In this document: piece by piece, positions 20,514 to 47,328 of the stretch | Layout: each line of letters opens with the position of its first letter | Position numbering within the stretch: the first letter of the stretch is position 1 | The notes under the pieces: generated by a model | What the model was told of the DNA's origin: nothing | The model's database searches: none | Seen by the model: the letters and a program-made list of their open reading frames with translations, nothing else | Translations under genes and position numbers: made by a program | Assembly: GCA_003105015.1 (NCBI GenBank) | Contig: PQAF01000037.1 | Location: 4,583 to 68,582 of the forward strand | Direction: 5' to 3' | DNA: 64,000 nucleotides | Source: Rhodocyclales bacterium | GTDB lineage: Bacteria > Pseudomonadota > Gammaproteobacteria > Burkholderiales > Rhodocyclaceae

Positions 20514-20596
20514 GAATATATGGACCCCCACGCTCACATTCGATCGCTGCCCCCCGAGGGGGCGCATGCCTTCCTTGGGACGGCCCGGCGGGAGGC

Positions 20597-21421: not shown

Positions 21422-21441
21422 ATTGACGAGAAGGACGCAAC

Positions 21442-22200
21442 ATGGCTGCTAAGTTGATCCTAAGCATGGATGGCCTGGTGCTCAAGGAAATTCCGCTCAC
21501 CAAAGAGCGGACGACGATCGGGCGCAAGCCGCACAACGATATCCAGATCGACAATCTGGCCATCAGCGGTGAACATTCGGTGATCGTCACGATCCTCAAC
21601 GATTCGTTTCTCGAGGACTTGAACAGCACCAATGGCACTTACGTGAATGGCCAGCCCATCAAGAAGCATTTTCTGCAGAACAACGACGTCGTCGAATTGG
21701 GCAAATACAAGCTCAAGTACATCAATGAGACTCCGACGCAGACGACGGCTGCGGATTTCGAGAAGACGATGGTGCTGCGGCCCGACCTGATGAAGAAGAC
21801 GGCGGAGCAGACGGCTGCCAAGTCATCCTCGATGAGCGATACGCAGGTCGGCATGAAGGCTATAGATACCCATGCCGGCATGGCGCCGCCTGCCCAAGCG
21901 ACTCCCCCGGCAACGGCGCCCGCTCCGCAGGCGATGCCGACAGGGGCCATCCAGATCCTGACGGGCGCGAATGCCGGGAAGGAACTGGAGTTGACCAAGA
22001 ATCTCACCACCCTGGGTAAACCGGGCGTGCAGGTGGCTGTCATCACCCGCCGGCCGCACGGCTACTTCATCACCCATGTCGAAGGGGCCAACTTCCCGGT
22101 CGTCAATGGCACTGCTCTGGATGCCCATCCGCGCGAGTTGAAGGATCATGACGTCATTGAGCTGGCCGGCATCAAGATGGAGTTCTTCCTCAAAAGCTGA
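21442..22200 (+). CDS. FHA-domain protein (N-terminal canonical FHA, Pro/Ala-rich linker, C-terminal FHA-like domain)
   Basis: IGRKPHNDIQI...ISGEH...DLNSTNGTYVNG; second repeat TTLGKPG...FPVVNG...LKDHDVIELAG. Confidence 0.9.
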   Translation: MAAKLILSMDGLVLKEIPLTKERTTIGRKPHNDIQIDNLAISGEHSVIVTILNDSFLEDLNSTNGTYVNGQPIKKHFLQNNDVVELGKYKLKYINETPTQTTAADFEKTMVLRPDLMKKTAEQTAAKSSSMSDTQVGMKAIDTHAGMAPPAQATPPATAPAPQAMPTGAIQILTGANAGKELELTKNLTTLGKPGVQVAVITRRPHGYFITHVEGANFPVVNGTALDAHPRELKDHDVIELAGIKMEFFLKS

Positions 22201-22313
22201 GCCCGTCGGCACAATCTTGGATGCAGTATCCAGGCTGCATGCAGTTTTGAAACCGCCACCATGAGTTGGGCGTCAGGCTTGCTTAATGCGGGGCAGTTCG
22301 GAAGGGGGCGGTT

Positions 22314-24545: not shown

Positions 24546-24561
24546 CATAAGAGATAAAGAA

Positions 24562-25329
24562 ATGAAGGTCAGAGTTCTCGGCTGCAGCGGCGGGATTGGC
24601 GGACGTCATCTGCGCACGACCTCGCTGCTGGTCGACCACGACATCCTGATTGACGCAGGAACCGGTGTGGGGGATCTGTCGCTGGCCGAACTGGCCTTGA
24701 TCGACCATGTCTTCCTCACCCATTCGCATCTCGACCATGTTGCCTGTCTGCCGTTCATGGTCGACACCGTGGGCGACATGCGCAACAAGCCGCTGACGGT
24801 ACATGCCACCCAGGCCACGCTGGAAATCATCCAGGCGCACATCTTCAACTGGGCCATCTGGCCCGACTTCTCGGAGATTCCCAACCGCGAAAAGCCGTTC
24901 ATGCGCTACGCTGAGTTGAAGACCGGCAAGACGGTGAAGGTGGACGGGCGCGAGATTACCCCGCTTCCGGCCAATCACACCGTACCCGCCGTGGGTTATC
25001 GCATCGATTCCGGCGAGGGCAGTCTGGTGTTCAGCGGCGATACGACGGTGTGCGATGAGTTGTGGAAAGTCGTGAACAAGATCCGCAACCTGCGCTACCT
25101 CATCATCGAAACCGCCTTTTCCAATCGCGAGCGGCAGCTTGCCGTCGCCTCGAAGCATCTATGCCCCGATATGCTGCGTGAGGAGCTGCTCAAGCTGCAG
25201 CGCGAGGCGGATATCTACATCACTCACCTCAAGCCCGGGCAGATCGAGCTGACCATGCAGGAAATCGAAGAGTTCATAGGGGAATACAGGCCGCGCATGT
25301 TGCAGAACAACCAGGTGTTTGAGCTGTAA
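24562..25329 (+). CDS. 3',5'-cyclic-nucleotide phosphodiesterase, metallo-beta-lactamase fold
   Basis: LGCSGGIG, IDAGTG, LTHSHLDHV (HxHxDH), NHTVP, FSGDT; sits directly after the cyclase. Confidence 0.85.
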   Translation: MKVRVLGCSGGIGGRHLRTTSLLVDHDILIDAGTGVGDLSLAELALIDHVFLTHSHLDHVACLPFMVDTVGDMRNKPLTVHATQATLEIIQAHIFNWAIWPDFSEIPNREKPFMRYAELKTGKTVKVDGREITPLPANHTVPAVGYRIDSGEGSLVFSGDTTVCDELWKVVNKIRNLRYLIIETAFSNRERQLAVASKHLCPDMLREELLKLQREADIYITHLKPGQIELTMQEIEEFIGEYRPRMLQNNQVFEL

Positions 25330-25339
25330 GGGTTCGCGA

Positions 25340-26407
25340 ATGGGCATGCAATCCATTTCCACGGAAATATTGAGGCGGCTCGAGCCGCTGGGGGCTCTGT
25401 CGCCGGACAGCCTTCGCGAGATATCCCGCATGTGCTATGCAGAAAAAATCAGCCGGAATCTCGACCCGTTTCGGCTGCAGGGCATGCAGGGCCAGGCTGT
25501 CTATCTCGTCAAGGGCGAATTGAAGATTGATTACCCGGATTCCAGCTCCGAAATCCTGGTCGGCGGGACAGAGGCCGCCGTTCGCCCGCTGGACAAACGG
25601 AAACCCGCATTTACGGGGGCCAAGGCGATTACGGACGTCGAGTTGATCCGAATCGACGAGGAACTGCTCGATATCATGCTGACATGGGACCAGCTGGCCG
25701 CGCCGCAGGCCACAGCCGGCGCGAAGAAAACCCCGGATGCGGCGGATCGTACGGATTGGCGCACGATGTCCGGCATGTTTGCGGCAGAGAACCTGACGCA
25801 CGGCATATTTGCCAGCCTGCCGCCGGCCAACATCGAGGCGCTGTTCGCACGCTTCCACCGCATCAAGGTGGCGCGCAACGAAGTGGTCATCAGAGAAGGG
25901 GAGGATGGGGACTTCTATTACGTCATTGAAAGCGGGCGTTGCACGGTGTTCCGCCAGATCGGGGGCGCCAGCGTCGGACTGGCCGAGTTGAAGGCCGGCG
26001 ATGCTTTCGGAGAGGAAGCGTTGGTGGCAAACACCAAGCGAAACGCGACGGTTGCAATGAAAACCGATGGTGTCCTGTTGAGGCTGGCGAAGGCGGATTT
26101 CATCGAGTTGCTGAAAGAACCCCTGATGCATCGCATTTCGCGTCCGGAAGCGGACAAGAAAGCGGCTGCCGGAGCCGTCTGGCTGGACGTCCGCTTTGCT
26201 GCCGAATACAACACCGACAAGCTGCCGGGGGCGATCAACATTCCGCTCAACGAGATACGCAACCTGTTCGGCTCCCTCGATCGCCAGAAGGAGTATATTG
26301 CCTACTGTCAGAGTGGGCGGCGCAGTTCGGCGGCGGCATTTCTGCTCTCCCAGCGTGGCTATAAGACTTATCTGCTCGAAGGCGGGCTTCGCGGCAGTGC
26401 GACATAA
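25340..26407 (+). CDS. Tandem cNMP-binding domains fused to a C-terminal rhodanese domain
   Basis: Degenerate first cNMP domain; second has REGEDGDFYYVIESG...FGEEALVANTKRNATV; rhodanese LDVR...LPGAINIP...YCQSGRRS...LEGG. Confidence 0.85.
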   Translation: MGMQSISTEILRRLEPLGALSPDSLREISRMCYAEKISRNLDPFRLQGMQGQAVYLVKGELKIDYPDSSSEILVGGTEAAVRPLDKRKPAFTGAKAITDVELIRIDEELLDIMLTWDQLAAPQATAGAKKTPDAADRTDWRTMSGMFAAENLTHGIFASLPPANIEALFARFHRIKVARNEVVIREGEDGDFYYVIESGRCTVFRQIGGASVGLAELKAGDAFGEEALVANTKRNATVAMKTDGVLLRLAKADFIELLKEPLMHRISRPEADKKAAAGAVWLDVRFAAEYNTDKLPGAINIPLNEIRNLFGSLDRQKEYIAYCQSGRRSSAAAFLLSQRGYKTYLLEGGLRGSAT

Positions 26408-26443
26408 GGCACGCATCCCAATGGCTCAGAAGGGAAATCTGGT

Positions 26444-28819
26444 ATGAGTGCGGTGCTTGGTTCGACTCAGGATGCTGGCAGCGGAGGCGATGTCGCCAGC
26501 CGTCTGTCTTTCTTCAAGAACCTCCAGACAGTCACCAACAAGATCCATGCGACGGCCAATATCGACGAGATCATGCTCGAGTTGTCGCAGGACATCTGTA
26601 CGCTGTTCAACGCGGATCGGCTGACCATCTACTCGATCAGCGAGGACAAGTCCTCCATCGTCTCCAAGGTCAAGACCGGCCTCAATTCCTTCAAGGACCT
26701 GCGGCTGCCGATTGCCGACCAGAGCATCGCAGGGTTTGTCGCGCTATCGAAGAAGCTGGCAAATATCAGCGACGTCTACGACGAGGCGGAACTGAAATCG
26801 CACACGCCCAGCCTGCGCTTCCTGCAGGAGGTGGATAAGCGTACGGGCTACCGCACCAAGCAGATGCTGGTGGCCCCGATCACCGAGGCGCAAAGCGGCG
26901 AGTTGCTTGGGGTGGTCCAGCTCATCAACAACAAGGCCGGGGCGCCCTTCTCCCAAGTGGCGGAGGAGGGGGTAAAAGGACTGTGCGAAACACTGGCCAT
27001 TGCATTCACCCAGCGTCAGAAGCCGGCGCATGTCGTCAAATCGAAATATGACCATCTGGTCGCCGATGCCGTGCTGTCGGCAGCCGAATTTGATCTTGCG
27101 ACGCGTTCCGCGCGGCGCAAGGGCCTCGACATCGAAGAGGTGCTGCAGCACGAATTCCAGGTCAAGCCGGCGGCGATCGGTTCGGCCCTGTCGAAGTTCT
27201 TCGGCGTGCCTTACGAGCCGTACAAGGGCGACCGCATCAAGCCGATGGACCTGTTGAGAAACCTCAAACGGGAATACGTCGAAGAGAATCAGTGGCTGCC
27301 GATCGAGGAAACGAAGGAAGGCGTCGTGATCCTGACGATGGATCCCGAGCAGGTGAAGAGCTCGCGCATCGTCAACAACGTCTTTCCGAAGAGCAAGCTG
27401 GTCTTTCGCGTCACCACCATCCCGGAATTCAAGCAGACGATCGACCAGTTCTATGGCGCGGCCGCCGATTACGGCTCCGTCGGCGATCTTCTTTCCGGCA
27501 TGGACGAAGGGGAGGAGGGCGGCGGCGAGCTGACCGGCGAGGATATCTCGGCGGCGGCGGACAACGAACTCGTCAAGCTCGTCAACAAGATCATCATCGA
27601 TGCCTATAGCCAGGGTGCATCGGATATTCACATCGAGCCGCGGCCTGGCAAGGACAAGACCATCATCCGCTTCCGCAAGGACGGCTCGCTGGCGAACTAT
27701 ATCGAGATTCCGGCAAGCTACCGCAATGCCCTCGCAGCGCGCATCAAGATCATGTGCGATCTGGACATATCCGAGCGTCGCAAGCCGCAGGACGGCAAGA
27801 TCAAGTTCAAGAAATTCGGTCCGCTCGATATCGAACTGCGCGTGGCGACGATTCCATCGGCCGGCGGCGTCGAGGATGTGGTCATGCGCATCCTCGCCGC
27901 CGGGGAACCGATTCCGCTCGAGAAGCTCGGCATCCTGCCGCACAACCTGGAGCGGTTGAAGAACGTGGTCGAGAAGCCTTATGGACTGTTCTTCGTTTGC
28001 GGTCCGACCGGTTCGGGAAAGACAACCACGCTGCACTCCGTTCTGAAGCACCTGAATACGCCTGACACGAAGATCTGGACGGCAGAGGACCCGGTCGAGA
28101 TCACGCAGAAAGGCCTGCGGCAGGTCCAGATCAACCGCAAGGCCGGACTGGATTTCGCCACCATCATGCGCGCCTTCCTGCGTGCCGATCCGGACATCAT
28201 CATGGTCGGCGAGATGCGCGACAAGGAGACCGTCTCCATCGGCATCGAGGCGTCGCTGACCGGCCACCTGGTATTCGCCACGCTGCACACCAACAGTGCG
28301 CCCGAATCGATCACCCGCCTGCTCGACATGGGCATGGATCCCTTCAATTTTGCCGACGCTCTGCTCGGCATCCTGGCGCAGCGCCTGGGCAAGCGCTTGT
28401 GCGGCGAATGCAAGGAAGCCTACACCGCGTCGGGGGAGGAGATGAAGAGCCTGCTCACCGAGTACTGCGAGGAACTGCTCAACACCAGCACCTTCAAGAA
28501 GGATGCCAAGGCAGGCTACGAGACGGTGTACAAGGAGTGGGCGAAGAATTACGCCGACGACAAGGGGCAGTTCAAGCTCTACAAACCGAAGGGCTGCGAG
28601 AAATGCAACAACACGGGCTACAAGGGGCGTGTCGGTTTGCATGAATTGATGGTGGGAACGGATAACGCCAAGAAGCTGATCCAGGAGCATGCCCGGGTTG
28701 CAGAACTGGTCGCCTGCGCCCTGGAGGACGGCATGCGCACCCTGAAGCAGGATGGTATCGAGAAGGTGCTGCAGGGCATCACCGACATGAAGCAGGTTCG
28801 GGCGGTTTGCATCAAGTAA
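26444..28819 (+). CDS. GAF-fused PilB/GspE-family secretion ATPase
   Basis: N-terminal GAF (DKRTGYRTKQMLVAPI...GVVQLINNK), T2SSE_N-like region, ASDIHIEP, Walker A GPTGSGKT, TAEDPVE, DPDIIMVGEMRD, LHTN, and CxxC...CxxC (CGEC, CEKC). Confidence 0.92.
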   Translation: MSAVLGSTQDAGSGGDVASRLSFFKNLQTVTNKIHATANIDEIMLELSQDICTLFNADRLTIYSISEDKSSIVSKVKTGLNSFKDLRLPIADQSIAGFVALSKKLANISDVYDEAELKSHTPSLRFLQEVDKRTGYRTKQMLVAPITEAQSGELLGVVQLINNKAGAPFSQVAEEGVKGLCETLAIAFTQRQKPAHVVKSKYDHLVADAVLSAAEFDLATRSARRKGLDIEEVLQHEFQVKPAAIGSALSKFFGVPYEPYKGDRIKPMDLLRNLKREYVEENQWLPIEETKEGVVILTMDPEQVKSSRIVNNVFPKSKLVFRVTTIPEFKQTIDQFYGAAADYGSVGDLLSGMDEGEEGGGELTGEDISAAADNELVKLVNKIIIDAYSQGASDIHIEPRPGKDKTIIRFRKDGSLANYIEIPASYRNALAARIKIMCDLDISERRKPQDGKIKFKKFGPLDIELRVATIPSAGGVEDVVMRILAAGEPIPLEKLGILPHNLERLKNVVEKPYGLFFVCGPTGSGKTTTLHSVLKHLNTPDTKIWTAEDPVEITQKGLRQVQINRKAGLDFATIMRAFLRADPDIIMVGEMRDKETVSIGIEASLTGHLVFATLHTNSAPESITRLLDMGMDPFNFADALLGILAQRLGKRLCGECKEAYTASGEEMKSLLTEYCEELLNTSTFKKDAKAGYETVYKEWAKNYADDKGQFKLYKPKGCEKCNNTGYKGRVGLHELMVGTDNAKKLIQEHARVAELVACALEDGMRTLKQDGIEKVLQGITDMKQVRAVCIK

Positions 28820-28824
28820 GCGTC

Positions 28825-37931: not shown

Positions 37932-39998
37932 ATGAACCTGCTGAAGGTCGTCAAGCGCGCCTGGCAGACCCTACCGCTTTCTGACCATCTTCGGTGGCGG
38001 ATCACGGCGTTGCTGCTGGATCCTATTCTGCCGTTGATCCGTGGCAGCGTCGTCCATTCGGCCTATCTCCGTGAGAAGGAGTGGCACGACCAGCGCATCC
38101 GCCCATTCCACGGTGACGCCTTTCCGACGCTTCCTGCGCAGGAGAAACCCGACGTCTTCTTCTGGGGCGTCATTGATTGGCGCTACCGCATACAACGGCC
38201 CCAGCATCTGGCGCGCGGGCTGTCAGGACGGGGGTTCCGTGTCTTCTACGTCTCGACCTCGTTTGTGAATGACCGGAAGCCCGGCTTCGAGTTGGAAAGC
38301 ATGGATGCGGAAGGCCGGCTTTACAACGTCAGGCTGCACCTGAAGGGCCGCCCTCGCATTTATTCGGCCCCGCCGGGAAAGGATGATTTCCAACGATTGA
38401 AGGCGAGCGTCGCGGCCCTGCTCGAGTGGACGGAAAGCCGGGAGATCGTTGCTCTGGTGCAGCATCCGTATTGGGCGCCACTTGCCGAGGTGCTGCCCGA
38501 CAGCCGGCTCATATACGACTGCCTGGACCACCACGAGGGCTTTGAGAATACCGGCGAGGGCATCGGTGCGCTGGAGCGCAGGTTGCTGGAGAGGGCGGAT
38601 GCGGTGGTCGTGACCTCGCAGTGGCTGCACGATTTAGCCGCCTTGCGCAACCGGAACGTCGCGGTCATTAGGAATGCCGCTGAGTTCGAACGTTTTGCGG
38701 CGCCTCCCTCCATGGTGTTCAGGGACCCTGCTGGCAGGCGTGTCATCGGTTACTTTGGCGCTATCGCAGAGTGGCTCGATGTCGACTTGCTGCGAGAGAT
38801 CGCTGGCGCCTTCCCGGAATGTCTTCTGCTTCTCGTCGGTGCCGACGAGTGTGGGGCTGGACAGCGGCTGAGCGATCTGCGCAATGTCCTGCTAACCGGT
38901 GAAGTTCAGTACGCTGACTTGCCGCATTTTCTGCACGGCATGGACGTGTGTCTGCTGCCTTTCCGCGTCACGCCGCTGACGCAGGCGACCAACCCGGTGA
39001 AAATCTACGAATACCTGTCTGCAGGCAAGCCGGTTGTGGCAGTCGACCTGCCGGAAATGGCCCAGTTCGGTTGCGTTATCGATGTCGCACAGACGCCGGA
39101 GGGATTCATCGAAAAGTTGCGTTGCCTGCTGGCGATCCCGCAGGAGAACGAGTCAGCCATCAGTGCCCGGAAGGAATTCGCCCGACAGCATACGTGGCAT
39201 CGCCGCGTGGATGACCTGGTCGGTGTCATTGATCGCCTGCCAAAGCCGTCGGCTAGCATCGTTGTTCTGACCTACAACAATCTCGAACTGACGCGGGCCT
39301 GCCTCGACAGCCTGGCGCGCTTTACCGATCCGCAGCTCTGCGAAACCATAGTGGTGGATAACGCTTCGACCGACGGCACGCAGGACTTCCTGCAGCGGTG
39401 GGCTGCAGGTGGGCACGGCAGGAGGCTGATCCTCAATGAGAACAATCGCGGATTTGCGGCCGGGAACAACCAGGGTCTGGCAGTCGCACAGGGGGACTAC
39501 CTTGTTCTGCTAAACAACGATACTGAGGTGACGCAGGGTTGGCTGACCACCCTGATGAATCATCTGCGCAGTAATTCAGACATCGGCATTGTCGGGCCGG
39601 TGACCGACAATATCGGCAACGAGGCGCGGATTGCACTGCGCTACACGAGCGTGGAGGAAATGCAAGGGGAGGCGCGCAGCTATACGCTTGCCCATATGGG
39701 AGAGCGGCTGCCGATCCGGACTCTGGCGTTTTTCTGCGTCATGATTCCGCGTGAGGTCTACCAGCGGGTGGGTCCGCTGGACGAGTCGTATGGCCTCGGC
39801 TTTTTCGAGGACGACGACTATTGCCGGCGCATCGAGCGGGCTGGCTGGCGCATTGCCTGTGCCGAAGACGTTTTTGTCCGGCACCATCTCTCGGCTTCCT
39901 TCGGCAAGCTCGGCAAGGGCAGGCGCGATTTGCTGGAGCGCAACCGGAAGATTTACGAGGCAAAATGGGGCCCATGGATTCCGCACAGGTACCGGTGA
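37932..39998 (+). CDS. Two-domain glycosyltransferase (GT-B/GT4-like plus GT2)
   Basis: N-terminal QRPQHLA, YDCLDHH, GYFGAI, NPVKIYEYL; C-terminal VLTYN, VDNASTDG, NRGFAAGNN, LLNND, FFEDDDY. Confidence 0.88.
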   Translation: MNLLKVVKRAWQTLPLSDHLRWRITALLLDPILPLIRGSVVHSAYLREKEWHDQRIRPFHGDAFPTLPAQEKPDVFFWGVIDWRYRIQRPQHLARGLSGRGFRVFYVSTSFVNDRKPGFELESMDAEGRLYNVRLHLKGRPRIYSAPPGKDDFQRLKASVAALLEWTESREIVALVQHPYWAPLAEVLPDSRLIYDCLDHHEGFENTGEGIGALERRLLERADAVVVTSQWLHDLAALRNRNVAVIRNAAEFERFAAPPSMVFRDPAGRRVIGYFGAIAEWLDVDLLREIAGAFPECLLLLVGADECGAGQRLSDLRNVLLTGEVQYADLPHFLHGMDVCLLPFRVTPLTQATNPVKIYEYLSAGKPVVAVDLPEMAQFGCVIDVAQTPEGFIEKLRCLLAIPQENESAISARKEFARQHTWHRRVDDLVGVIDRLPKPSASIVVLTYNNLELTRACLDSLARFTDPQLCETIVVDNASTDGTQDFLQRWAAGGHGRRLILNENNRGFAAGNNQGLAVAQGDYLVLLNNDTEVTQGWLTTLMNHLRSNSDIGIVGPVTDNIGNEARIALRYTSVEEMQGEARSYTLAHMGERLPIRTLAFFCVMIPREVYQRVGPLDESYGLGFFEDDDYCRRIERAGWRIACAEDVFVRHHLSASFGKLGKGRRDLLERNRKIYEAKWGPWIPHRYR

Positions 39999-40005
39999 TG
40001 AGGCG

Positions 40006-40851
40006 ATGAGCGCGATCGGCAGGCGACTGGTTTCGGTGCTGAAGGAACTGCGCAATGCCGCAACAGCCAGGCTCGAAGTGCTTGCCGGTACCGGCGAGGG
40101 CCAGACGATCTTTTGCTGCAATGTGTGCGGCCGGATGGCGAAGGTGGACAAGACCAGATTGACGCGCGAAGAACCGAGCTGCAGGTGCGGGTCTTCAGTC
40201 AGGCTGCGCGCCATCGTCCATCTCTTGACCATGGGGCTTTTCGGCAGGAGCCTGGCGATCCGGGACATACCTGAGCGTCACGATATCGTAGGCATCGACA
40301 TGAGCGGCGCTGCCATCTATGCCGGCCGGCTGGCTCGGCGACTTGGCTATACCAACACCTATCTGCATCGGGAGCCGCGGCTCGACATCACGGCTCCTGG
40401 AGCGGAATGGTTGTCGCGGTGCGACTTCGTCATCTCCTCCGATGTGTTCGAGCATGTCGCACCACCGGTTTCCGTGGCCTTCGACAACGTTCTGCGGTTG
40501 TTGAAGCCGGGCGGGCTTTTAGTGCTGACTGTTCCATGGGCGAAGGACGGCGAGACGATCGAGCATTTTCTTGAACTTGCCGACTATCGGCTCGAACGCC
40601 GGGGAGCGGACAGGGTTCTCGTGGGCCGCGCCCCAGACGGCAGGATTCGGGAGTACGGAAACCTCATCTTCCACGGCGGCGAGGGGGAAACCCTCGAGAT
40701 GCGCGTCTTCTCGGAATCAGGCATATTGGGTGAACTCGCGCGCGCCGGCTTCGGTGACATACGTATCCATGCCGAGCCTTGTGAGGAATTCGGCATCCTA
40801 TGGAAGCAGCCATGGTCATTGCCCATCACAGCGAGGCGTCCGCCTGCATGA
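40006..40851 (+). CDS. SAM-dependent methyltransferase with N-terminal Cys cluster
   Basis: CNVCG...EPSCRCGSSVR, SSDVFEHV, LLKPGGLLVLTVP, FHGG. Confidence 0.75.
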   Translation: MSAIGRRLVSVLKELRNAATARLEVLAGTGEGQTIFCCNVCGRMAKVDKTRLTREEPSCRCGSSVRLRAIVHLLTMGLFGRSLAIRDIPERHDIVGIDMSGAAIYAGRLARRLGYTNTYLHREPRLDITAPGAEWLSRCDFVISSDVFEHVAPPVSVAFDNVLRLLKPGGLLVLTVPWAKDGETIEHFLELADYRLERRGADRVLVGRAPDGRIREYGNLIFHGGEGETLEMRVFSESGILGELARAGFGDIRIHAEPCEEFGILWKQPWSLPITARRPPA

Positions 40852-41957
40852 CGCACAGATTCCTTTGCGTGGTCGGCACCCGGCCCGAGGCGATCAAGAT
40901 GGCTCCGGTCATACGGGCATTGAGGCGGAAGCCAGGACTCGGAGTGCGCGTGCTTGCCACGGCACAGCATAGGGAAATGCTTGATGAAACCCTCGCGCAG
41001 TTCGGGATCATCCCCGACATCGACCTCAACATCATGCGGCCGGACCAGACACTCGCCGATCTGACCGCCCGACTTCTCGCCGGCATCGACGCGGCGCTCG
41101 CTTCCGAGAGGCCGGATGTCGTCGTTGCCCAGGGGGATACCACCACGGTCTTCGCCTCAGCCCTTGCGAGCTTCTACCGCCGCATCCCTTTCGCGCACGT
41201 CGAGGCCGGTCTGCGTACGGGCGATTTCTCGAACCCCTTTCCCGAGGAGATGAACCGCAATTTCGCGGGGCGGCTCGCGGCGCTCCACTTCGCCCCGACT
41301 GCAGGTGCACGCGCCAACCTGCTTCGGGAAGGTATTCCCGATCACATGATCCATGTGACCGGAAACACAGTCATCGACGCGGTCCAATGGATGGCGACAA
41401 ACAATCCGGATCATGGCCTTCCGATCAACGGGGCGGCGCAGGTGATTCTGCTGACCTGCCATCGCCGCGAGAATTTCGGGAATCCGCTTCGGCAAATCCT
41501 GTCCGGTGTCAGGCGCTTGGCCGCAATGCATCCAGAGATCGCGATCGTTTATCCGGTCCATCCGAATCCCGGCGTAGCAGGTCCGGCTCGTCAATTACTT
41601 ACGGGAATATCCAACATTGTGCTGACGGAGCCATTGAGCTATGCCAAGCTTGTCGGCGTACTGAAGACATGCCATTTTGTGCTGACCGATTCAGGTGGGT
41701 TGCAGGAAGAGGCGCCGGCATTGGGAAAACCTGTACTCGTTCTACGCAACGAGACAGAACGTCCGGAAGCTGTCGAGGCCGGCATAGCCATCCTGGTCGG
41801 CCATGAAGAAGAAACCGTTGTACGGGAAGCTAGCCGATTGTTGAACGACAAGTGTCACTATCGGGCAATGGCGCGCGCGGTATCACCTTATGGCGATGGA
41901 CATGCAGGAGAGCGGATTGCGGAAGCGCTCACTAGCTGGTTAAGGCAAATAAAATAG
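40848..41957 (+). CDS. wecB: UDP-N-acetylglucosamine 2-epimerase (non-hydrolysing)
   Basis: GTRPEAIKMAP, TAQHREML, QGDTTT, HVEAGLR, PEEMNR, HRREN, TDSGGLQEEAP, NETERPE, YGDG. Confidence 0.95.
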   Translation: MTHRFLCVVGTRPEAIKMAPVIRALRRKPGLGVRVLATAQHREMLDETLAQFGIIPDIDLNIMRPDQTLADLTARLLAGIDAALASERPDVVVAQGDTTTVFASALASFYRRIPFAHVEAGLRTGDFSNPFPEEMNRNFAGRLAALHFAPTAGARANLLREGIPDHMIHVTGNTVIDAVQWMATNNPDHGLPINGAAQVILLTCHRRENFGNPLRQILSGVRRLAAMHPEIAIVYPVHPNPGVAGPARQLLTGISNIVLTEPLSYAKLVGVLKTCHFVLTDSGGLQEEAPALGKPVLVLRNETERPEAVEAGIAILVGHEEETVVREASRLLNDKCHYRAMARAVSPYGDGHAGERIAEALTSWLRQIK

Positions 41958-41987
41958 CTGCTGCCGACGAGAAGACTGCATCGGCGC

Positions 41988-42230
41988 TCAACGAGGGAAG
42001 GCGCGATCTCTCCATGCGAGGATCGGACGCTCAAAATGCCGCTCCACCAAGGCCGCCAACAATGTACTGCCGAACATGAAGGCGCTCCAGCGTGTAATTG
42101 CGCCATGCACGTCGCCAGGCTGCGTGTCGCCGGAATAATGCCGGATGAGATGGAATATCGGCATATGCGTCAAATACTAGGCATAGGGTAACCGGGCCAA
42201 GACGAGTGTGGGATTTAGCCGATCCAGCAT
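41988..42230 (-). pseudogene. 3' remnant of an acyltransferase-3 (O-acetyltransferase) gene
   Basis: Reads LARLPYA*YLTHMPIFH...LLAALVERHFERPILAWRDR, resembling the family C-terminus (SYxLYLxHxP...ExP); in-frame TAG at 42177-42179; N-terminal part missing. Confidence 0.65.
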
Positions 42231-42253
42231 CGATACTCATGCGCCAGCCACCT

Positions 42254-43567
42254 CTAATCAGAACGCAATCCCGCAAAACGACTCAGAACTTTATGTATAG
42301 CCCGCAATGGATAGGTCATCCGCCAAGCCCAAGAGGATTGGATTCCTGACAACTGTTTCTCGAGTTCGGCAACCCGAAGCTCCAGCAACCTAATTTTTTC
42401 CTGCATGTGACTCTCCAGGTGGCGACGCAGTATTTCTTCTTCCGACGGCTTTTCGAGCCGCCAACGGATGTAATCCGGCGTAAAGGCAAGTTCCCACGGA
42501 ACAAGATAATTCAGAAGGAAGAAGGCATAGGCGGACGCGTTGACCCTACCGGTTTCCGGTGTGATGCAATATCCGAACGGGCTGTCTCCATGAACAATGG
42601 CCCCGCGGCCGAGCAATAGTGCTTCAACCGCGATGCCGGAGTTGATGGTAATGATTTGCTTGCAGCGCATCAGGAAATCGAGCGACGATGGGGAGCGATC
42701 CACTTCCATCCCGGCAGGCAGGCCGCGAAGCAAGAAGTGGGAACCGGGATGCGTTCGCACGAGTACCGGTGACCTGATACTTTGCTGGGAAAGCAGGCGG
42801 CGCGCATGGTTGATGAGAGATATCGAGGAATGGTTATTGGCGTAGCAAACAATATTGCTGTCGTCTTCAATTTGGAGGCCCAACCCAAGATCGACGACCG
42901 GCTGACCGTTATCTTTCGGAAGTTGGACCATGAACAATCGACGCAAGGTCTCGACGGAATGCGAGGCGAGCAGTTCCCGGATCGTGCCGTTCTCGGTCGA
43001 TGTGAATCTGCTTTCCGACTCCGTGGTTCCGTTTACCCCCGAAAAGTCAAAGTAGGCGGTTTGCAGAAAGAATGGCGGACGAAGTGGTCCCAACTCAAAA
43101 TGTATAAGCGGCAATCCCCTGTCATGACATAGGTTCTTTAATGTGGCGCAATTGACGCAGGTAATCACTGCCTCTGGCTGGCCATGACTTGACCCGAACG
43201 TATCGAGAGCACTGGCCATGGCCGATCGCAACCCAGGATCGTTCTCTTGGCAGTAATGCCTTAGTGCGGCCAGAGGATTGGCGCCATGCCGGGCTTCGAA
43301 TGCTTGCCATACCTCCCTTGGAATAACCTGTAGTGACAGTTTTCCGAGCCCTGTCTGATCAGGCAAATTGTATCGGTACAGATTCGCCGTCGCTTCGCAC
43401 GCCTCAAACCGACCTTCGGCCAGCAGTTCGGATGGGTCGCGATAGTATTCGTCGCCAGAGATAAATCCAGCATGCGCGCCGAATTCGCTGACAAACTTAT
43501 AGAACCACCATAGATAGGGAGAGTGATTTCCCCTGAAATTCAGTGCTGGCAAGAAGACGGCAAACAT
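42254..43567 (-). CDS. Stand-alone GT99 (WbbB-type retaining beta-Kdo transferase) with short C-terminal coiled coil
   Basis: MFAVFLP..FRG..SPYLW.FYK, HFELGPLR, TAYFDFSGVNG, LQIEDDSN, RTHPGS, TINS, YLVP all match the WbbB N-terminal domain as I recall it; tail LELRVAELEKQLSGIQSSWAWRMTYPLR. Confidence 0.78.
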   Translation of the reverse strand: MFAVFLPALNFRGNHSPYLWWFYKFVSEFGAHAGFISGDEYYRDPSELLAEGRFEACEATANLYRYNLPDQTGLGKLSLQVIPREVWQAFEARHGANPLAALRHYCQENDPGLRSAMASALDTFGSSHGQPEAVITCVNCATLKNLCHDRGLPLIHFELGPLRPPFFLQTAYFDFSGVNGTTESESRFTSTENGTIRELLASHSVETLRRLFMVQLPKDNGQPVVDLGLGLQIEDDSNIVCYANNHSSISLINHARRLLSQQSIRSPVLVRTHPGSHFLLRGLPAGMEVDRSPSSLDFLMRCKQIITINSGIAVEALLLGRGAIVHGDSPFGYCITPETGRVNASAYAFFLLNYLVPWELAFTPDYIRWRLEKPSEEEILRRHLESHMQEKIRLLELRVAELEKQLSGIQSSWAWRMTYPLRAIHKVLSRFAGLRSD

Positions 43568-43592
43568 TCGATGCTTGTAGGGCTGATTGTGC

Positions 43593-44582
43593 TCAAGAAA
43601 GGGGCCAGCGGCATCGTATGATCCTGCCATCGAACCCTTCCGTCACTGCACAAGGGAAAAACTTCCGAAGCTTCTCGATGTCACCTTTGTCGTAATCCAG
43701 CTTCGGCAGGATTGCCGCTTTCTTTCTCACAATCACCGAAATATCGTAGCCTTCGCTCAGAACCGCGGCCTCGGCGCAATCGAAGCCGGCCAGTATGAGA
43801 TGGTAAAGAAGAATGCCGGCGTTCCACAGGGTTACGTGACCGCCAACAATATCGTACTTCAGCGGAGGGACGGTAATGGCTAATATTCCATCCTCAGTCA
43901 GATCCGCATAAACCTTTTTCAAAAAGATGTTTGGATTGGGCTGATGCTCTAGAATATGACATGCCCAGATACAGTCGAAGGTTTGGCCAAACTTATGCTC
44001 TAGATAATCCGCCTTGATCACATTCCTGACATCGTTGCTGTCGAAGTATACGGACGAACCGAGGTCGATGCAGGTCACCGACTTCCCTTGTTCCATGAAA
44101 AAACGGGCGTGGTCCCCGGCTCCGCTTCCGATGTCGAGAATGCTCTCAAAGGCAAAATGCTCTGCTAGGGTTTTCATGGCGGCACTGCCCCTTAACGAAA
44201 TGCAGGTGGCCGGAGAGTCGCTCTCGTGCGCCGAAAAACCCAGAAGCTGGCAAGGCGACCCTGAGACGATTGCATGGTCTGGAACAAAGCCATCCACGGT
44301 GGTGTGATTTTCAACCACAGCGTGACGACCAATTACTGCTCCTGCGCGAATCAGACAATGCTCCCCGATTTGCGCATAGTCGCCGATGCTGGCGCAGCCC
44401 TCGACATGCGTTTTCCTACCGATGGTCACTCCGATCCCGATGGAGTATGGGCGATCAAGACACTTCCGCAATGGGCAGCGATCGATTCGCACTTCTGGCC
44501 CGAGTGTTGCGGACCGCCGCAGGACTTGCCAAGACCAGAGGGACATGAGCAGATACAGGCCGGCACACAAGAATTTTTTCAT
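43593..44582 (-). CDS. Hexapeptide-repeat (LbH) domain fused to a SAM-dependent methyltransferase
   Basis: IGIGVTIG...IGDYAQIGEHCLIRAGAVIG...VPDHAIVSGSP then ILDIGSGAG, WACHILEH, GGHVTLW. Confidence 0.7.
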   Translation of the reverse strand: MKKFLCAGLYLLMSLWSWQVLRRSATLGPEVRIDRCPLRKCLDRPYSIGIGVTIGRKTHVEGCASIGDYAQIGEHCLIRAGAVIGRHAVVENHTTVDGFVPDHAIVSGSPCQLLGFSAHESDSPATCISLRGSAAMKTLAEHFAFESILDIGSGAGDHARFFMEQGKSVTCIDLGSSVYFDSNDVRNVIKADYLEHKFGQTFDCIWACHILEHQPNPNIFLKKVYADLTEDGILAITVPPLKYDIVGGHVTLWNAGILLYHLILAGFDCAEAAVLSEGYDISVIVRKKAAILPKLDYDKGDIEKLRKFFPCAVTEGFDGRIIRCRWPLS

Positions 44583-45454
44583 GGCATTGCGGTCAGAAAG
44601 CTCAGCCTGTCCTCGGAAAGCGAATAACCAAGGCGTTGCCATGCTTCTGCGGTTAGTGCGATGAGACGCTCCCGGTCGCGCCTGGAAACACGCCTTGATT
44701 TATCGATCGATGATGGGCCGATGGGGCGGTCGAGGGGATTCTTTCCATGCCCCATCCCCGAGTGAAGCTTATGGGAATCGACCATGCCATCCTCGTACTC
44801 GATGCCGAGTTCGCCACACAGTTCTTTGAGTATGTCGGCCGGCTGCCGGATGAAATCCTCGTAACGAATGACCGGCAGGCCAAGTGTGGCCAGCCTCCCC
44901 ATCCGGCGATTGTAGAATGCAGCAAAGATTTCTAATAAGTCCATGTAGGGTAAGCTGACGGCAACGCACGGGTCAATGTTCCCGAACCAGCGCGAGAGCC
45001 GCTCGATGTTGCCGCCCAAGGCCCGCGCGCGCTCAAAACAGCCGAGGCGCAATAAAAGCGACTCCCGCCGGGCTGTCTTTTGATCATCATAGGCAAGCAA
45101 GCTGGCAAATACAGCGACGGGATTTCGTGCCAGGACAAACCCGTTGAATGACCACCGATGTTCCCAAATTCCCTGCTTGACGAGAATTAGATCGCCATCA
45201 TGGACATTCAGCCCAGAGAGGATTTCATGGTGACAAGGAATGGTTTGATCCGGCCAATCCATGAAGAACCGGAGGCGCTTCTCTGATTCTGGGGAGTCAA
45301 TCAACTGGGCGGCGACATGGATGCGCGAATGCGCCCCAAGTGTCCTCAGCATGAGGGTTTCGCCGCCACGGGCAAGGCTTGCCATGTGGATGACCCGTGC
45401 GAACCCAAGGTTCCTTTCCGGTTTGCTGGCAAGGCCGGATAAAATATTCAGCAC
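44579..45454 (-). CDS. PAPS-dependent sulfotransferase-like protein
   Basis: ARGGETLM (5'-phosphosulfate loop like PRSGTT), RNPVAVFAS (3'-phosphate motif), RYEDFIRQP; co-operonic with cysC. Confidence 0.7.
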   Translation of the reverse strand: MLNILSGLASKPERNLGFARVIHMASLARGGETLMLRTLGAHSRIHVAAQLIDSPESEKRLRFFMDWPDQTIPCHHEILSGLNVHDGDLILVKQGIWEHRWSFNGFVLARNPVAVFASLLAYDDQKTARRESLLLRLGCFERARALGGNIERLSRWFGNIDPCVAVSLPYMDLLEIFAAFYNRRMGRLATLGLPVIRYEDFIRQPADILKELCGELGIEYEDGMVDSHKLHSGMGHGKNPLDRPIGPSSIDKSRRVSRRDRERLIALTAEAWQRLGYSLSEDRLSFLTAMP

Positions 45455-45461
45455 GGAAATT

Positions 45462-46688
45462 TCACCCCCCTTGGATTACCCACTCGAATGGCATATCTAC
45501 AAGCCCATGAGGAATGCGCATGGGGTTGGTTCCGGGGGCGGCTGAGACACGAAATGTGCAAACTCGCTGACCATGCCAAAGCGTAGTGCGATGTTTGTCC
45601 AGAAAGGCCAACCGCAGGTGGTATACCCCGGGAAGGAGAGCCATTTCTTGAAAGTGGCATTCGACTCGGTGACGGCCTGCTGGAAAGTCCGGAGGCGTGT
45701 TGAGACGACCGGTGTTGGCTGAGGCGATGTATACAAGATCGGATGTGTGTATCCCTATTATGATGTCCGGCTTCCAGAGATTGATCCGAGTGGAGAAGTC
45801 GATGACGATACGCGCATGCCCATGAGAGACGAGAACACCTGCGGATTCGCCCCCTTCGCCCATATCAAGCAGGATGGCATGAACCTCGATGTCGCCCGAG
45901 TCGGACAGCGTGGCAAGCGGCTTGTCGGCATCAGTCCGGCCCTGAATGAATTGGTGACTGCTTTCCTGATATGTACGGCATACCGCTTCACTGTCTCCCA
46001 GCAGCTTCACTTCACCCTGGTCTAGCCAGACGACTTTGCTGCATACCCGTTCAATTTGCTGGAGGTTATGGCTAACGAATAGCAGAACCTTGTCATGTCG
46101 GTTGAGGTAGCTCCCAAGCTTATCGATGCACTTGCGCTGGAAAGTTGCGTCCCCGACCGCCAAAGCCTCGTCGATGACGAGGATTTCCGCATCCGCATGG
46201 ATCATCGCAGCAAATGCCAGCCGGACGAACATCCCGCTCGAATAGGTGCGCACCGGCTGATCGATGAATTCCCCGATATCAGCAAAGACGGCGATTTCAT
46301 CGAAGCGCGCATCCATCTGGGCTTTCGTGAAGCCCATCAGTGCGCCTTGGAAATAGACGTTTTCTCGCCCGGTGAATTCTGGATTGAATCCGGCGCCCAG
46401 TTCTAGCAGCGCCGAGATGCGGCCGCTGACCTCGATTGAACCTGCGGTAGGCTTGAGGATGCCGCAGATCATTTGAAGCAGGGTGCTCTTGCCTGAGCCA
46501 TTGCGACCAATGATGCCGACAGTCTCGCCTCTTTTTATATCGAAGGAGACGCCTTTCAGCGCGACGAATTCGCGGTGATACTGCCGCAGGCCAAGACTCA
46601 GGAACTGCCTAATCCGGTCGCCGGGATGACCGAAGAGCCGGTAGGCCTTGCTCAGGTTGCGTGCGGAAATGACGACGTCAGGCGCCAT
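45462..46688 (-). CDS. wzt: Polysaccharide ABC transporter ATPase with C-terminal carbohydrate-binding (Wzt_C) domain
   Basis: GRNGSGKSTLL, LLELGAGF, YSSGM, IDEALAVGD, VSHN, then about 140 aa beta-rich domain (LLPGVYHL). Confidence 0.93.
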   Translation of the reverse strand: MAPDVVISARNLSKAYRLFGHPGDRIRQFLSLGLRQYHREFVALKGVSFDIKRGETVGIIGRNGSGKSTLLQMICGILKPTAGSIEVSGRISALLELGAGFNPEFTGRENVYFQGALMGFTKAQMDARFDEIAVFADIGEFIDQPVRTYSSGMFVRLAFAAMIHADAEILVIDEALAVGDATFQRKCIDKLGSYLNRHDKVLLFVSHNLQQIERVCSKVVWLDQGEVKLLGDSEAVCRTYQESSHQFIQGRTDADKPLATLSDSGDIEVHAILLDMGEGGESAGVLVSHGHARIVIDFSTRINLWKPDIIIGIHTSDLVYIASANTGRLNTPPDFPAGRHRVECHFQEMALLPGVYHLRLAFLDKHRTTLWHGQRVCTFRVSAAPGTNPMRIPHGLVDMPFEWVIQGG

Positions 46689-47328
46689 GGCCGGCTTCGG
46701 CTTGTGCAATGACGTTGCGCTCGCGCAGCAGCGACAGCAGGGTTGCAATGGATTCCCCGACGCCGGTTCGACTCGTGTCCAGCACCAGGTCCGGGCGCTG
46801 CGGCGTCTCATAAGGCGCCGACACGCCGGTGAAATGGGCGATGCCGCCGGCCCTGGCCTTGGCGTAGTTTCCCTTTTCGTCGCGCGATTCGCAGACTTCG
46901 ACGGGACAGCGGCAATACACCTCGATGAAATTCTCTGCGCCGACCAGTTCGCGCACCTTCCGGCGATCTGCCGCGTAGGGCGAGACGAAGGCGGCCAGGG
47001 TGATGATGCCCGCATCCAGGAACAGGTTCGCCAGTTCCCCGATGCGGCGGATGTTTTCCGCACGGTCCTTCTCGGCGAAGCCGAGGTCGCGGCACAGGCC
47101 GTGCCGGACATTGTCTCCATCGAGCACGTAGGCGCTGCGGCCTTCGGCGAAGAGGCGCTCCTCCAGCCCGTGCGCCAGGGTGGACTTGCCCGAGCTGGGC
47201 AGGCCGGTGAACCAGACCAGCACGCTGCGGTGGCCGCTGCGCGCCTCGCGCATCGCGCGGGTCACCTGCTGCGGGTGCCAGCGCAGGTGGGGATCGATGC
47301 TGCCGGGGGCGGGCTTGTCAGAGGACAT
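46678..47328 (-). CDS. cysC: Adenylylsulfate (APS) kinase
   Basis: WFTGLPSSGKST, LDGDNVR, DRAENIRR, FVSPY, NFTG-like HFTGVSAPYE. Confidence 0.95.
   Translation of the reverse strand: MSSDKPAPGSIDPHLRWHPQQVTRAMREARSGHRSVLVWFTGLPSSGKSTLAHGLEERLFAEGRSAYVLDGDNVRHGLCRDLGFAEKDRAENIRRIGELANLFLDAGIITLAAFVSPYAADRRKVRELVGAENFIEVYCRCPVEVCESRDEKGNYAKARAGGIAHFTGVSAPYETPQRPDLVLDTSRTGVGESIATLLSLLRERNVIAQAEAGHGA

Follow-up and report, generated by a model that had tools for sequence, protein, structure and literature searches.

The 64,000-nt window, a stretch of one contig from a Rhodocyclales bacterium, carries on its minus strand a gene for a bona fide GT99 protein of 437 amino acids, predicted from its sequence and modeled structure to be a retaining β-Kdo transferase. 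This free-standing enzyme probably, though by no means certainly, supplies the capping half of a "split WbbB" to an ABC transporter-dependent glycan pathway. The system is an uncharacterized variant of a known chain-capping system, with a very short coiled-coil tail and with sulfation and methylation genes in the operon (Table 1). To our knowledge, just one GT99 member has been characterized, the N-terminal module of the tri-functional WbbB. A split GT99 terminator does not overturn current models; it is a solid annotation with testable extensions.

Table 1. Features of the GT99 locus and the neighboring glycan cluster (positions in the window).
Feature	Position	Strand	Basis or remarks
GT4, methyltransferase, GT2, and Methyltransf_24 genes of the same glycan cluster	34053..37930	(+)	
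GT4-GT2 dual-module glycosyltransferase, 688 aa	37932..39998	(+)	Candidate polymerase partner; Pfam, NCBIfam TuaH/TuaG-like
WecB, non-hydrolysing UDP-GlcNAc 2-epimerase (UDP-ManNAc supply)	40800..41957	(+)	PF02350 E 1.6e-112; TIGR00236 471 bits
GT99 gene	42254..43567	(-)	437 aa from Met22; putative stand-alone retaining β-Kdo transferase with C-terminal coil and anchor motif
SSWAWRMTYPLR motif and cationic amphipathic helix	42266..42337	(-)	ORF residues 432-455; possible anchor at the membrane interface and/or docking site
Short coiled-coil segment	42341..42406	(-)	ORF residues 409-430, about 3.5 heptads, ~22 residues
GT99 catalytic domain	42407..43567	(-)	Residues 1-387 from Met22; pairwise alignment with R. 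terrigena WbbB, fold match
Left-handed beta-helix (LbH, acyltransferase-like) and SAM methyltransferase fusion	43593..44582	(-)	Pfam Hexapep, Methyltransf_23, Methyltransf_11
Sulfotransferase-like protein, 291 aa	44579..45454	(-)	Sulfotransfer_3 E 2e-5, 25.4 bits, just below cut-off
Wzt, ABC nucleotide-binding domain (NBD) and C-terminal carbohydrate-binding module (CBM)	45462..46688	(-)	Pfam ABC_tran, Wzt_C (about 45492-45872)
APS kinase CysC (PAPS supply)	46678..47328	(-)	PF01583 E 2.8e-64; NCBIfam apsK 243 bits
Wzm, ABC-2 permease	47318..48127	(-)	PF01061 E 1.8e-23

The GT99 protein

The longest minus-strand frame covers 42254..43630 (458 aa). Since all 16 aligned relatives begin at the residue corresponding to its Met22 (MFAVFLP...), the likely true start is at 43567, giving 437 aa; catalytic residues are numbered here from Met22. 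The first-pass annotation had recognized a series of WbbB-like motifs in this frame, and had proposed a GT99 profile search and a structural overlay on WbbB as checks. The motifs are all present (PYLWWFYK, FELGPLR, DFSGVNG, QIEDDSN, HPGS, TINSG, and SSWAWRMTYPLR), far beyond what would be expected by chance, and both checks bear out the assignment. The protein matches the Pfam profile Glyco_transf_99 (PF21912) over its full length (positions 1-179 of 179) with an E-value of 8.4e-55 and 186.1 bits, against a cut-off of 27 bits. In a phmmer search of the PDB, residues 23-411 (389 residues) matched the WbbB GT99 entries 8cse/5fa0 (E 3.4e-64).

The AlphaFold2 model (pLDDT 82.9, pTM 0.80) leads to the same place. 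When it was compared with the PDB by Foldseek, the first 14 ranks were all WbbB chains (5fa1/8cse; E 1e-33), with TM-scores by target of 0.82-0.87 and rmsd of 3.0-4.0 Å over ~400 columns; next came the Kdo transferases KpsC and KrkA (E about 1e-7). The model has the modified GT-B fold of WbbB 5FA0/5FA1, with its reduced N-terminal Rossmann domain and helical insertion.

Over its whole length, the catalytic domain is 32-36% identical to the GT99 module of WbbB (R. terrigena/K. pneumoniae O12). In the pairwise alignment with R. terrigena WbbB, R12, E158, R163, Q232, D236, and H273-P274 correspond to WbbB Arg12, Glu158, Arg163, Gln228, Asp232, and His265-Pro266, with the QxxxD motif reading Q232-I-E-D-D236 opposite Q228-V-E-D-D232. 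In WbbB, Asp232 (here D236) is the nucleophile and Glu158 the general base (PMC9587256). E158, R163, Q232, and D236 are invariant in a 17-sequence family alignment, and H273 is nearly so; in the closest relative (P0004, 78% identical) the HP-motif histidine is replaced by Asn, so catalytic conservation in the clade is not absolute. The complete catalytic residue set rules out a pseudo-enzyme here. On the acceptor side, the WbbB contacts to the terminal sugar (Arg12, Pro17, Trp20, Glu158) are kept, and those to the penultimate GlcNAc are altered (W54F, L64Y).

Coiled coil, spacer, and C-terminal motif

The heptad-like stretch that the first-pass annotation placed after the GT99 domain is real, though short. 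All of its a/d positions are hydrophobic (M409, I413, L416, V420, L423, L427, I430), and it lies inside a single AlphaFold2 helix (397-431), which is followed by a second one (434-455). The coil leads, as also noted earlier, into a motif of the type SxSW[RK]xTxP[LV]R, here SSWAWRMTYPLR at position 42334. For the tail, the hydrophobic moment is 0.54-0.56 and the net charge +4. The same motif marks the end of the coiled coil in R. terrigena WbbB (L029), where the polymerase modules follow it, and recurs in some 30 further coil proteins of GT99 loci; in the present genome it occurs just once.

The spacer between catalytic domain and motif is 49 aa, the shortest among 73 motif-bearing GT99 proteins measured (141 in WbbB). 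Within the clade sharing the GT99-plus-coil architecture it is exactly 49 or 56 residues, a one-heptad (7-residue) step. Outside this clade, spacer lengths are not clearly non-uniform modulo 7 (counts of 12, 8, 3, 10, 9, 3, and 4; n=49), so no general heptad-register rule is claimed for GT99. With a coil of only about 22 residues, or roughly 3 nm, a length-measuring role is doubtful, and any ruler or short-chain interpretation would have just those ~22 residues to rest on; the coil may be only an oligomerization and tethering element.

A realistic if tentative possibility is that the protein is a Kdo terminator whose coil and motif only oligomerize it and tether it to membrane or polymerase, chain length being set by the terminator:polymerase ratio and by kinetics; without a physical ruler, no prediction of short chains would follow. 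The roughly 3.5 heptads and the shortest spacer in the set suit such a role, as does the fact that many GT99 proteins manage with no coil at all (46 of these "bare" forms were tallied); in Thiobacillus loci, a bare GT99 stands beside a separate 1465-1486-aa protein with coil and motif. The exact one-heptad step argues the other way, in that it shows a spacer kept in register and changing by discrete steps, the behavior to be expected if it has a function. So does conservation of the architecture throughout a clade of 57 tips (support 1.0), mostly metagenomic Betaproteobacteria. Whichever applies, the clade shows a terminator separated from its polymerase and with its spacer cut to three or four heptads. 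As the probable capping half of a split WbbB, the protein offers a natural minimal system for the WbbB/WbdD model. It would be interesting to see there if the coil is a measuring device or just a tether, what function the SxSW[RK]xTxP[LV]R motif at its end has, and by what means a separate polymerase is brought in.

Operon, glycan cluster, and other GT99 loci

The gene order is wzm-cysC-wzt(CBM)-sulfotransferase-LbH/methyltransferase-GT99, tightly packed and with GT99 last. The genes overlap or abut (cysC overlaps both wzm and wzt by 11 nt), consistent with a single operon; the convergent gap at 41958-42253 showed no intrinsic terminator. A neighboring wzm and a wzt with a binding module had been proposed, and both are present and co-operonic with GT99, the Wzt_C domain scoring 35.4 bits (cut-off 30.4). 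Neither is a direct neighbor of GT99: the sulfotransferase-like and LbH-methyltransferase genes lie between wzt and GT99, and the APS kinase gene between wzm and wzt. An assembly chimera was ruled out, since the gene order recurs on two independent contigs (L164 and L165); a protein cluster at 99% identity, on record from another contig of 3.3 kb, also speaks against it.

The sulfotransferase-like protein shares its operon with an APS kinase, and PF13469 is found in 13 of its 19 relatives. The LbH-methyltransferase, starting at 44582 or 44642, is 81% conserved in L164/L165, the only places where a tblastn search with the window's Wzt CBM gave matches. Against solved structures, the Wzt sequence was matched in its NBD tail alone, with no Wzt CBM entry among the matches. 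Neither the O12-type CBM that reads Kdo nor the CBMs of family members in Polaromonas and Ramlibacter are detectably similar to the CBM of the window's Wzt, a point against the split-WbbB reading.

Among 80 GT99 loci compared, 60 have wzt directly upstream on the same strand, and in 59 of these 60 it encodes a protein of 408-459 aa, taken as long enough to include a CBM. Cultured relatives with the locus include Ramlibacter sp. MMS24-I3-19 and Polaromonas sp. YR568. As proposed in the first-pass annotation, no polymerase is fused to GT99 in the window, where the candidate is a separate protein. A Geobacteraceae protein (L036) provides a Rosetta-stone fusion: GT99 and coil are joined there to a GT4 module with 41% identity (E 2e-76) to the GT4 half of the window's GT4-GT2 protein. 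WecB and GT99 are found together in L036, L044, and L057.

Proposed capping pathway

In the split-WbbB reading, a ManNAc-containing, methylated, and sulfated glycan would be assembled on the cytoplasmic side of the inner membrane, with undecaprenyl diphosphate as its carrier. Priming would be by the genome's single WecA-like enzyme, encoded on another contig, and extension by the separate GT4-GT2 protein with other glycosyltransferases of the cluster. The GT99 protein would oligomerize via its coil of roughly 3.5 heptads, and its C-terminal SSWAWRMTYPLR/amphipathic helix may keep it at the membrane, on the polymerase, or both. With a donor that is presumably housekeeping CMP-β-Kdo, Asp236 would form a covalent Kdo adduct in a double displacement like that of WbbB, and Glu158 would activate the non-reducing terminal sugar, leading to addition of one β-Kdo, most likely in terminal position. 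This cap would halt extension, and the co-operonic sulfotransferase and methyltransferase could possibly decorate it. It would then be read by the Wzt CBM, and the chain exported by Wzm/Wzt.

Because cysC and the sulfotransferase and methyltransferase genes share the operon, a composite cap or some other primary terminator is a live alternative to simple capping by Kdo; probably the cap is composite, with sulfate and/or methyl in addition to Kdo. The first-pass annotation had described a free-standing, WbdD-like terminator using Kdo. This stands as far as the stand-alone GT99, the coil and motif, and the operon with a CBM-bearing Wzt are concerned; it missed the link to cysC, sulfotransferase, and methyltransferase.

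Related genomes and the glycan acceptor

In other genomes of the genus, Wzm is 88-91%, CysC 81-97%, and the Wzt NBD 66-68% identical, and the Wzt CBM is exchanged along with the genes that come after wzt. The GT4, methyltransferase (MTa), and GT2 (GT2b) of the glycan cluster are 63-80% conserved in these genomes, where the Methyltransf_24 gene has no match. Same-genus variants of the locus have neither GT99 nor coil motif, yet in them wzt(CBM) still has sulfotransferase and O-methyltransferase genes downstream of it, so sulfate or methyl may be the primary cap at this locus. The second Wzt_C cluster of the present genome (contig C39) likewise has sulfotransferase and methyltransferase genes after wzt, and no GT99.

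These variants bear on an alternative in which the enzyme is an active β-Kdo transferase, but Kdo forms a side branch or an internal or adaptor residue and the CBM reads a sulfate and/or O-methyl terminator put on by the two enzymes whose genes come directly behind wzt. A gene order in which wzt and GT99 are separated by the sulfotransferase-like and methyltransferase genes, and wzm and wzt by cysC, would agree with it. So would the retention of wzt-sulfotransferase-methyltransferase in GT99-less variants and in C39. Methyl and phospho-methyl caps are established terminators (PMC11231755), and retaining Kdo transferases of related fold, such as KrkA (GT140), make repeat units. It is nonetheless unlikely: the sole characterized GT99 is a terminator, and GT99 is directly paired with a CBM-sized Wzt in 59 of the 80 loci. 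The WbbB coil-end motif, moreover, is on the GT99 protein and on none of the sulfotransferases or methyltransferases, and no second glycosyltransferase that would extend the chain from Kdo can be singled out. Kdo as the terminal, chain-capping residue is the reading retained here, whether or not it is further modified.

Where the capped glycan goes is a separate matter. No match to PF04932 (Wzy_C/WaaL ligase) was found in this genome, which is 94.8% complete, nor in 12 of 13 genomes of the genus, two closed ones among them; eight of eight other genera of the order have it. PF13425, used as a second ligase model, had no match in any genome searched, controls included, and is uninformative. Given the lack of Wzy_C/WaaL in this genome and in 12 of the 13, it is unsafe to label the glycan an LPS O-chain.

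The cassette is located between a type IV pilin gene, accompanied by a gene for a TfpW/TMTC-like membrane protein, and wzm. The pilin's neighbor, a TPR membrane protein of 645 aa, gave no match in a profile search of the PDB. The membrane part of its AlphaFold2 model is poor (pLDDT 40-80, pTM 0.54), and Foldseek matches to the model are to TPR proteins only. That it may be GT-C-like is suggested by the large number of hydrophobic helices, by a FFFDD loop that is invariant, and by names in source records such as "protein O-mannosyl-transferase".

A further reading, to be given little weight, is that β-Kdo is itself sulfated and/or methylated, or stands beside a sulfated or methylated residue, in a composite cap that the products of the three genes after wzt would build and that the CBM, swapped together with them, would read. 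The glycan would then be passed to a non-LPS acceptor, such as the pilin, another protein, or a lipid, by an unrecognized transferase. The exported, Kdo-capped glycan would in that case not be an LPS O-antigen, as suggested by a genus largely without WaaL/Wzy_C and by the position of the cassette between pilin gene and wzm. More broadly, an operon that combines a Kdo transferase with PAPS synthesis and with sulfotransferase and methyltransferase genes, next to a co-varying CBM, may widen the known range of export-licensing caps.

Comparison with known terminators

Precedents are the WbbB terminator, whose product is recognized by a CBM, and a free-standing Kdo terminator with a coiled coil in K. 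pneumoniae O4 (PMC11231755, PMC9587256). The window protein resembles WbbB (R. terrigena/K. pneumoniae O12) in its modified GT-B fold, QxxxD nucleophile, Glu base, and HP motif, in having wzm-wzt(CBM) upstream, and in a coiled coil ending in SxSW[RK]xTxP[LV]R. WbbB, however, is about 1100 aa long, and its 141-residue spacer and motif are followed by fused GT102/GT103 polymerase modules, whereas the window protein, after a 49-residue spacer, ends just 24 residues past the motif. The candidate polymerase of the window protein, GT4-GT2, has a gene of its own on the other strand. The altered penultimate acceptor contacts (W54F, L64Y) and the addition of CysC, sulfotransferase, and methyltransferase to the operon are further differences from WbbB.

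K. pneumoniae O4 ORF7 (GT137) has a similar general arrangement: a stand-alone terminator with a C-terminal coil, a separate polymerase, and a CBM-bearing Wzt (PMC11231755). It is a CMP-Kdo-dependent α-Kdo terminator, and export requires both the cap and the CBM-bearing Wzt (PMC11231755). Its fold and family are unrelated, however; it is inverting, forms an α-(2->2) product, and has a TPR-like bundle before the coil, while the window protein is a GT99 predicted to be retaining and to form β-Kdo. The free-standing WbdD terminators (E. coli O8/O9a, K. pneumoniae O3/O5) share the window protein's modeled layout of head, coil, and C-terminal helix. In WbdD, the coiled coil lies between the catalytic head and a C-terminal part with an amphipathic, membrane-associated helix and a region for polymerase recruitment (PMC11231755, PMC3482155). 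WbdD heads are methyltransferases with or without a kinase and are followed by a long coil, unlike the GT99 domain and short coil found here.

That the enzyme transfers some other ulosonic acid, such as a modified Kdo or a nonulosonic acid, is highly improbable: an Acinetobacter KpsC homologue does transfer pseudaminic acid (PMC12887879), and donor specificity cannot be read from sequence alone, but every Kdo- and CMP-contacting residue named for WbbB is conserved, a search of the glycan cluster for nonulosonic-acid genes (NeuB, PseI, NeuA type) found none, its epimerase is WecB rather than NeuC, and kdsB is present in the genome for donor supply. KpsC/KpsS (GT107) and KrkA (GT140) are of the same mechanistic class as the β-Kdo transferase proposed here, with QxxxD and HP motifs, at 8-17% identity to it and TM-scores of 0.3-0.5; they make capsule linkers or repeat units exported by KpsMT, rather than caps for Wzm/Wzt.

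Identity and start of the GT99 gene

The best available reading of the GT99 gene is that its product terminates glycan chains with beta-Kdo as a free-standing enzyme, effectively a WbbB that has been split. The protein matches PF21912 (Glyco_transf_99; Pfam, E 8.4e-55), and a phmmer search of PDB sequences returns the WbbB GT99 entries 8cse, 5fa0, 8csb, and 8csd (E ~1e-64) over residues 23–411. For an AlphaFold2 (AF2) model built from a 17-sequence alignment (pLDDT 82.9, pTM 0.80), the 14 best Foldseek PDB matches are all WbbB chains (E ~1e-33, TM by target 0.82–0.87), followed by KrkA and KpsC, Kdo transferases that are more distant (E ~1e-7). The GT99 resemblance proposed in the first-pass annotation, whose quoted motifs are all found in the ORF, is thus confirmed by profile search and structural overlay as real and beyond chance, and the protein is very probably a Kdo transferase. 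Because Met22 of the ORF aligns with the common start of all 16 relatives, the gene most likely begins at 43567, as first annotated, and encodes 437 aa.

Features of the GT99 locus and the neighbouring region
Feature	Coordinates	Strand	Remarks
Signalling-gene run	17850–30480	plus
Pilin-to-wzm stretch	~30661–48127
Type IV pilin, 645-aa membrane protein, GT2	30661–34072	plus
Convergent arm		plus	GT4, MT, GT2, MT, 688-aa GT4-GT2 protein, MT, WecB
GT99 ORF	42254..43630	minus	458 aa
GT99 gene, most likely extent	42254..43567	minus	437 aa
LbH-methyltransferase fusion	43593–44582 or 44642	minus
Sulfotransferase-like gene	44579–45454	minus
wzt	45462–46688	minus	NBD + Wzt_C
cysC, APS kinase	46678–47328	minus	11-nt overlap with wzm and with wzt
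wzm	47318–48127	minus

Catalytic residues, acceptor, and donor

WbbB works by double displacement, with Asp232 (in QxxxD) as nucleophile and Glu158 as base; the departing CMP takes its proton from His265 of the HP motif, and Arg12, Arg163, and Gln228 hold the carboxylate of Kdo in place (PMC9587256; PMC12887879). When the window protein, numbered from Met22, is aligned to the WbbB translation of R. terrigena locus L029, its R12, E158, R163, Q232, D236, and H273-P274 fall exactly on the catalytic positions, the Asp and Glu among them. The family alignment shows no variation at E158, R163, Q232, or D236 and almost none at H273. The closest relative, P0004 (L164 10001–11314; 78% identical), has Asn in place of the HP-motif His (RTNPGS vs. 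RTHPGS), a difference that could reflect a sequencing variant, a substitution that is tolerated, or inactivation of this copy; the H265A variant of WbbB is severely impaired.

The WbbB residues for the terminal acceptor sugar (Arg12, Pro17, Trp20, Glu158) are kept, and both of those holding the penultimate GlcNAc are altered (Trp54 to Phe, Leu64 to Tyr), which fits an acceptor disaccharide different from that of WbbB. Given that the genome has kdsB, that the cluster epimerase is a non-hydrolysing enzyme of WecB type (471 bits) rather than NeuC, and that no nonulosonic-acid genes were found in the window's glycan cluster, CMP-Kdo would be the obvious donor.

Coil and end-of-coil motif

Beyond the final helices of the GT99 domain, seven a/d positions in a row (M409, I413, L416, V420, L423, L427, and I430 in ORF numbering; ~3.5 heptads) are all hydrophobic. 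They lie inside a single modelled helix (397–431); beyond a break at Ser432-Ser433, a second one (434–455) begins with SSWAWRMTYPLR. The heptad-like stretch and motif described at first pass are both present. The tail helix is strongly amphipathic and cationic (hydrophobic moment 0.54–0.56, net charge +4).

At first pass, an SWRxTxPLR-like motif was attributed to WbdD-type terminators. R. terrigena WbbB carries the motif, as NSLSWKLTMPVRMSGR, at the end of its coiled coil, directly ahead of the polymerase modules. A scan of 80 GT99 loci from reference genomes found 34 occurrences of SxS-preceded W[RK]xTxP[LV]R in real ORFs, that of WbbB included; in the whole genome of the window the W[RK]xTxP[LV]R motif occurs once, in the GT99 protein. 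It is also found in large non-GT99 coil proteins of Thiobacillus-type loci, where GT99 is a bare protein of ~400 aa. Shared by WbbB, these coil proteins, and the window protein, it is a conserved “end-of-coil” element of such assembly proteins, and may plausibly serve to bind the membrane or to dock onto the polymerase. In L011, L024, L025, and L030 (Thiobacillus and betaproteobacterial MAGs), the bare, coil-less GT99 adjoins a separate 1465–1486-aa protein with a coil and the SxSW[RK]xTxP[LV]R motif near residue ~800, a third way to distribute terminator, ruler, and polymerase.

Searched exhaustively, 1.84 billion representatives yielded 513 with GT99 (183 at E<1e-30), from ~165 aa (fragments) to 1741 aa, and a tree of ~250 GT99 domains has ~60 changes among bare, short motif-bearing, and long multi-domain architectures. 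The window protein falls in a 57-tip clade (support 1.0) of exclusively short proteins; the named ones are “hypothetical” or “GT99 N-terminal domain-containing” proteins of Polaromonas and Ramlibacter, the others metagenomic. Measured between the conserved YIRWRL and the Trp of the motif, the spacer in this clade has either 49 or 56 residues, which differ by exactly one heptad; a single member has 64. Outside the clade it spans 70–487 residues (141 in WbbB), so the clade's spacer is the shortest among the motif-bearing GT99 proteins found. The coil is too short for confidence in a length ruler, which is clearly less credible than Kdo as an export-licensing cap. The first-pass annotation identified GT99 correctly, and its account of the function is the best to hand.

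Stand-alone GT99 genes are common in databases, and apparently none has been characterised. A description of a stand-alone coiled-coil Kdo terminator was found in one case only, K. pneumoniae O4 ORF7, a member of GT137, which is a family unrelated to GT99 (PMC11231755). The window protein is new in architecture but not in kind.

Operon context and chain capping

The GT99 gene comes at the end of a compact operon on the minus strand, which includes the Wzm/Wzt exporter with binding module reported at first pass. G+C drops from ~0.68 in the flanks to 0.53–0.56 around GT99. The same operon order is found in independent assemblies with 78% identical relatives (L164/L165, contig labelled Desulfobacillus), and a 53% relative (L166) has the order cysC-wzm-wzt-GT99. 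In 60 of 80 GT99 loci the gene directly upstream, in the same orientation, is wzt; 59 of these Wzt proteins are 408–459 aa, a length implying a CBM-sized extension. CBM-bearing Wzt is the hallmark of cap-dependent export (PMC11231755). More likely than not, Kdo is the export-licensing cap or part of it.

The protein is free-standing, as first described: the candidate polymerase, the GT4-GT2 protein, is separate. Both are linked in a Geobacteraceae MAG (L036 10001–13018), where one 1005-aa protein combines GT99 and a long coil with a GT4 module; this module shares 41% identity (E 2e-76) with residues 74–429 of the GT4-GT2 protein. This Rosetta-stone fusion argues that the two are halves of a WbbB-like terminator-polymerase machine. 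A Lamprobacter MAG (L044) likewise has GT99, the same type of GT4, and WecB together.

GT99 is present in one of 25 genomes of the genus and was not found in 16 other genera of the order. Compared with L169/L170, L173, and L174, the pilin-to-wzm stretch is a diversifying cassette within the genus: identities are 87–97% in the core flanks, 59–85% for the pilin, 58–70% for the TPR membrane protein, and 81–86% for GT2a, and the central part, which extends from beyond GT2b to the Wzt CBM inclusive, is exchanged entirely. Same-genus loci match the window in flanking signalling genes (87–97%), wzm (88–91%), cysC (81–97%), and the Wzt NBD (66–68%); no match to its CBM was found in them, and their post-wzt genes are instead Sulfotransfer_2, a TylF-type O-methyltransferase, an acyltransferase, and a WbsX-type GT. 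Within the genus, the CBM thus co-varies with the genes that follow wzt.

Those genes also bear on an alternative, in which the ancestral export signal of the locus may be sulfate and/or methyl, with Kdo added, alternative, or itself the decorated residue. Sulfotransferase, methyltransferase, and cysC are members of the GT99 operon, and sulfotransferase and methyltransferase genes follow wzt directly also where GT99 is absent: in GT99-free relatives and in the second Wzt_C cluster of the genome (contig C39, L167 12466–17735). There, genes for a sulfotransferase and a methyltransferase follow wzt, as does one for a 547-aa sulfotransferase-methyltransferase fusion, which resembles a sulfo counterpart of WbdD, a kinase-methyltransferase. 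Sulfation seems to recur among the ABC-exported glycans of this organism.

Glycan destination, pilin unit, and signalling genes

No Wzy_C (WaaL/PglL-type) protein is detectable in the window's genome (94.8% complete), despite its two CBM-type Wzm/Wzt exporters, or in 12 of 13 same-genus genomes, two closed ones included; such a protein is present in each of the eight other genera of the order. MraY aside, the sole WecA-like gene lies on C39.

After the type IV pilin gene come two more: the first encodes a multi-helix membrane protein of 645 aa that has an invariant FFFDD loop and ends in a TPR domain, the second a GT2 resembling polyprenyl-phosphate-sugar synthases. Among the >2800 relatives of the membrane protein, some bear the name PilF or “protein O-mannosyl-transferase”; AF2 and Foldseek gave no confirmation of a GT-C fold. 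The three genes are likely a TfpW/TMTC-like pilin glycosylation unit. The signalling genes that form a run upstream of the pilin encode a CHASE2 Ser/Thr kinase, PP2C phosphatase, FHA protein, CHASE2 adenylate/guanylate cyclase, class II phosphodiesterase-like protein, cNMP-binding rhodanese, GAF-PilB-type ATPase, and GAF-HD-GYP-like protein. Of these, the comparison covered the last two, which are 87–97% conserved in the genus.
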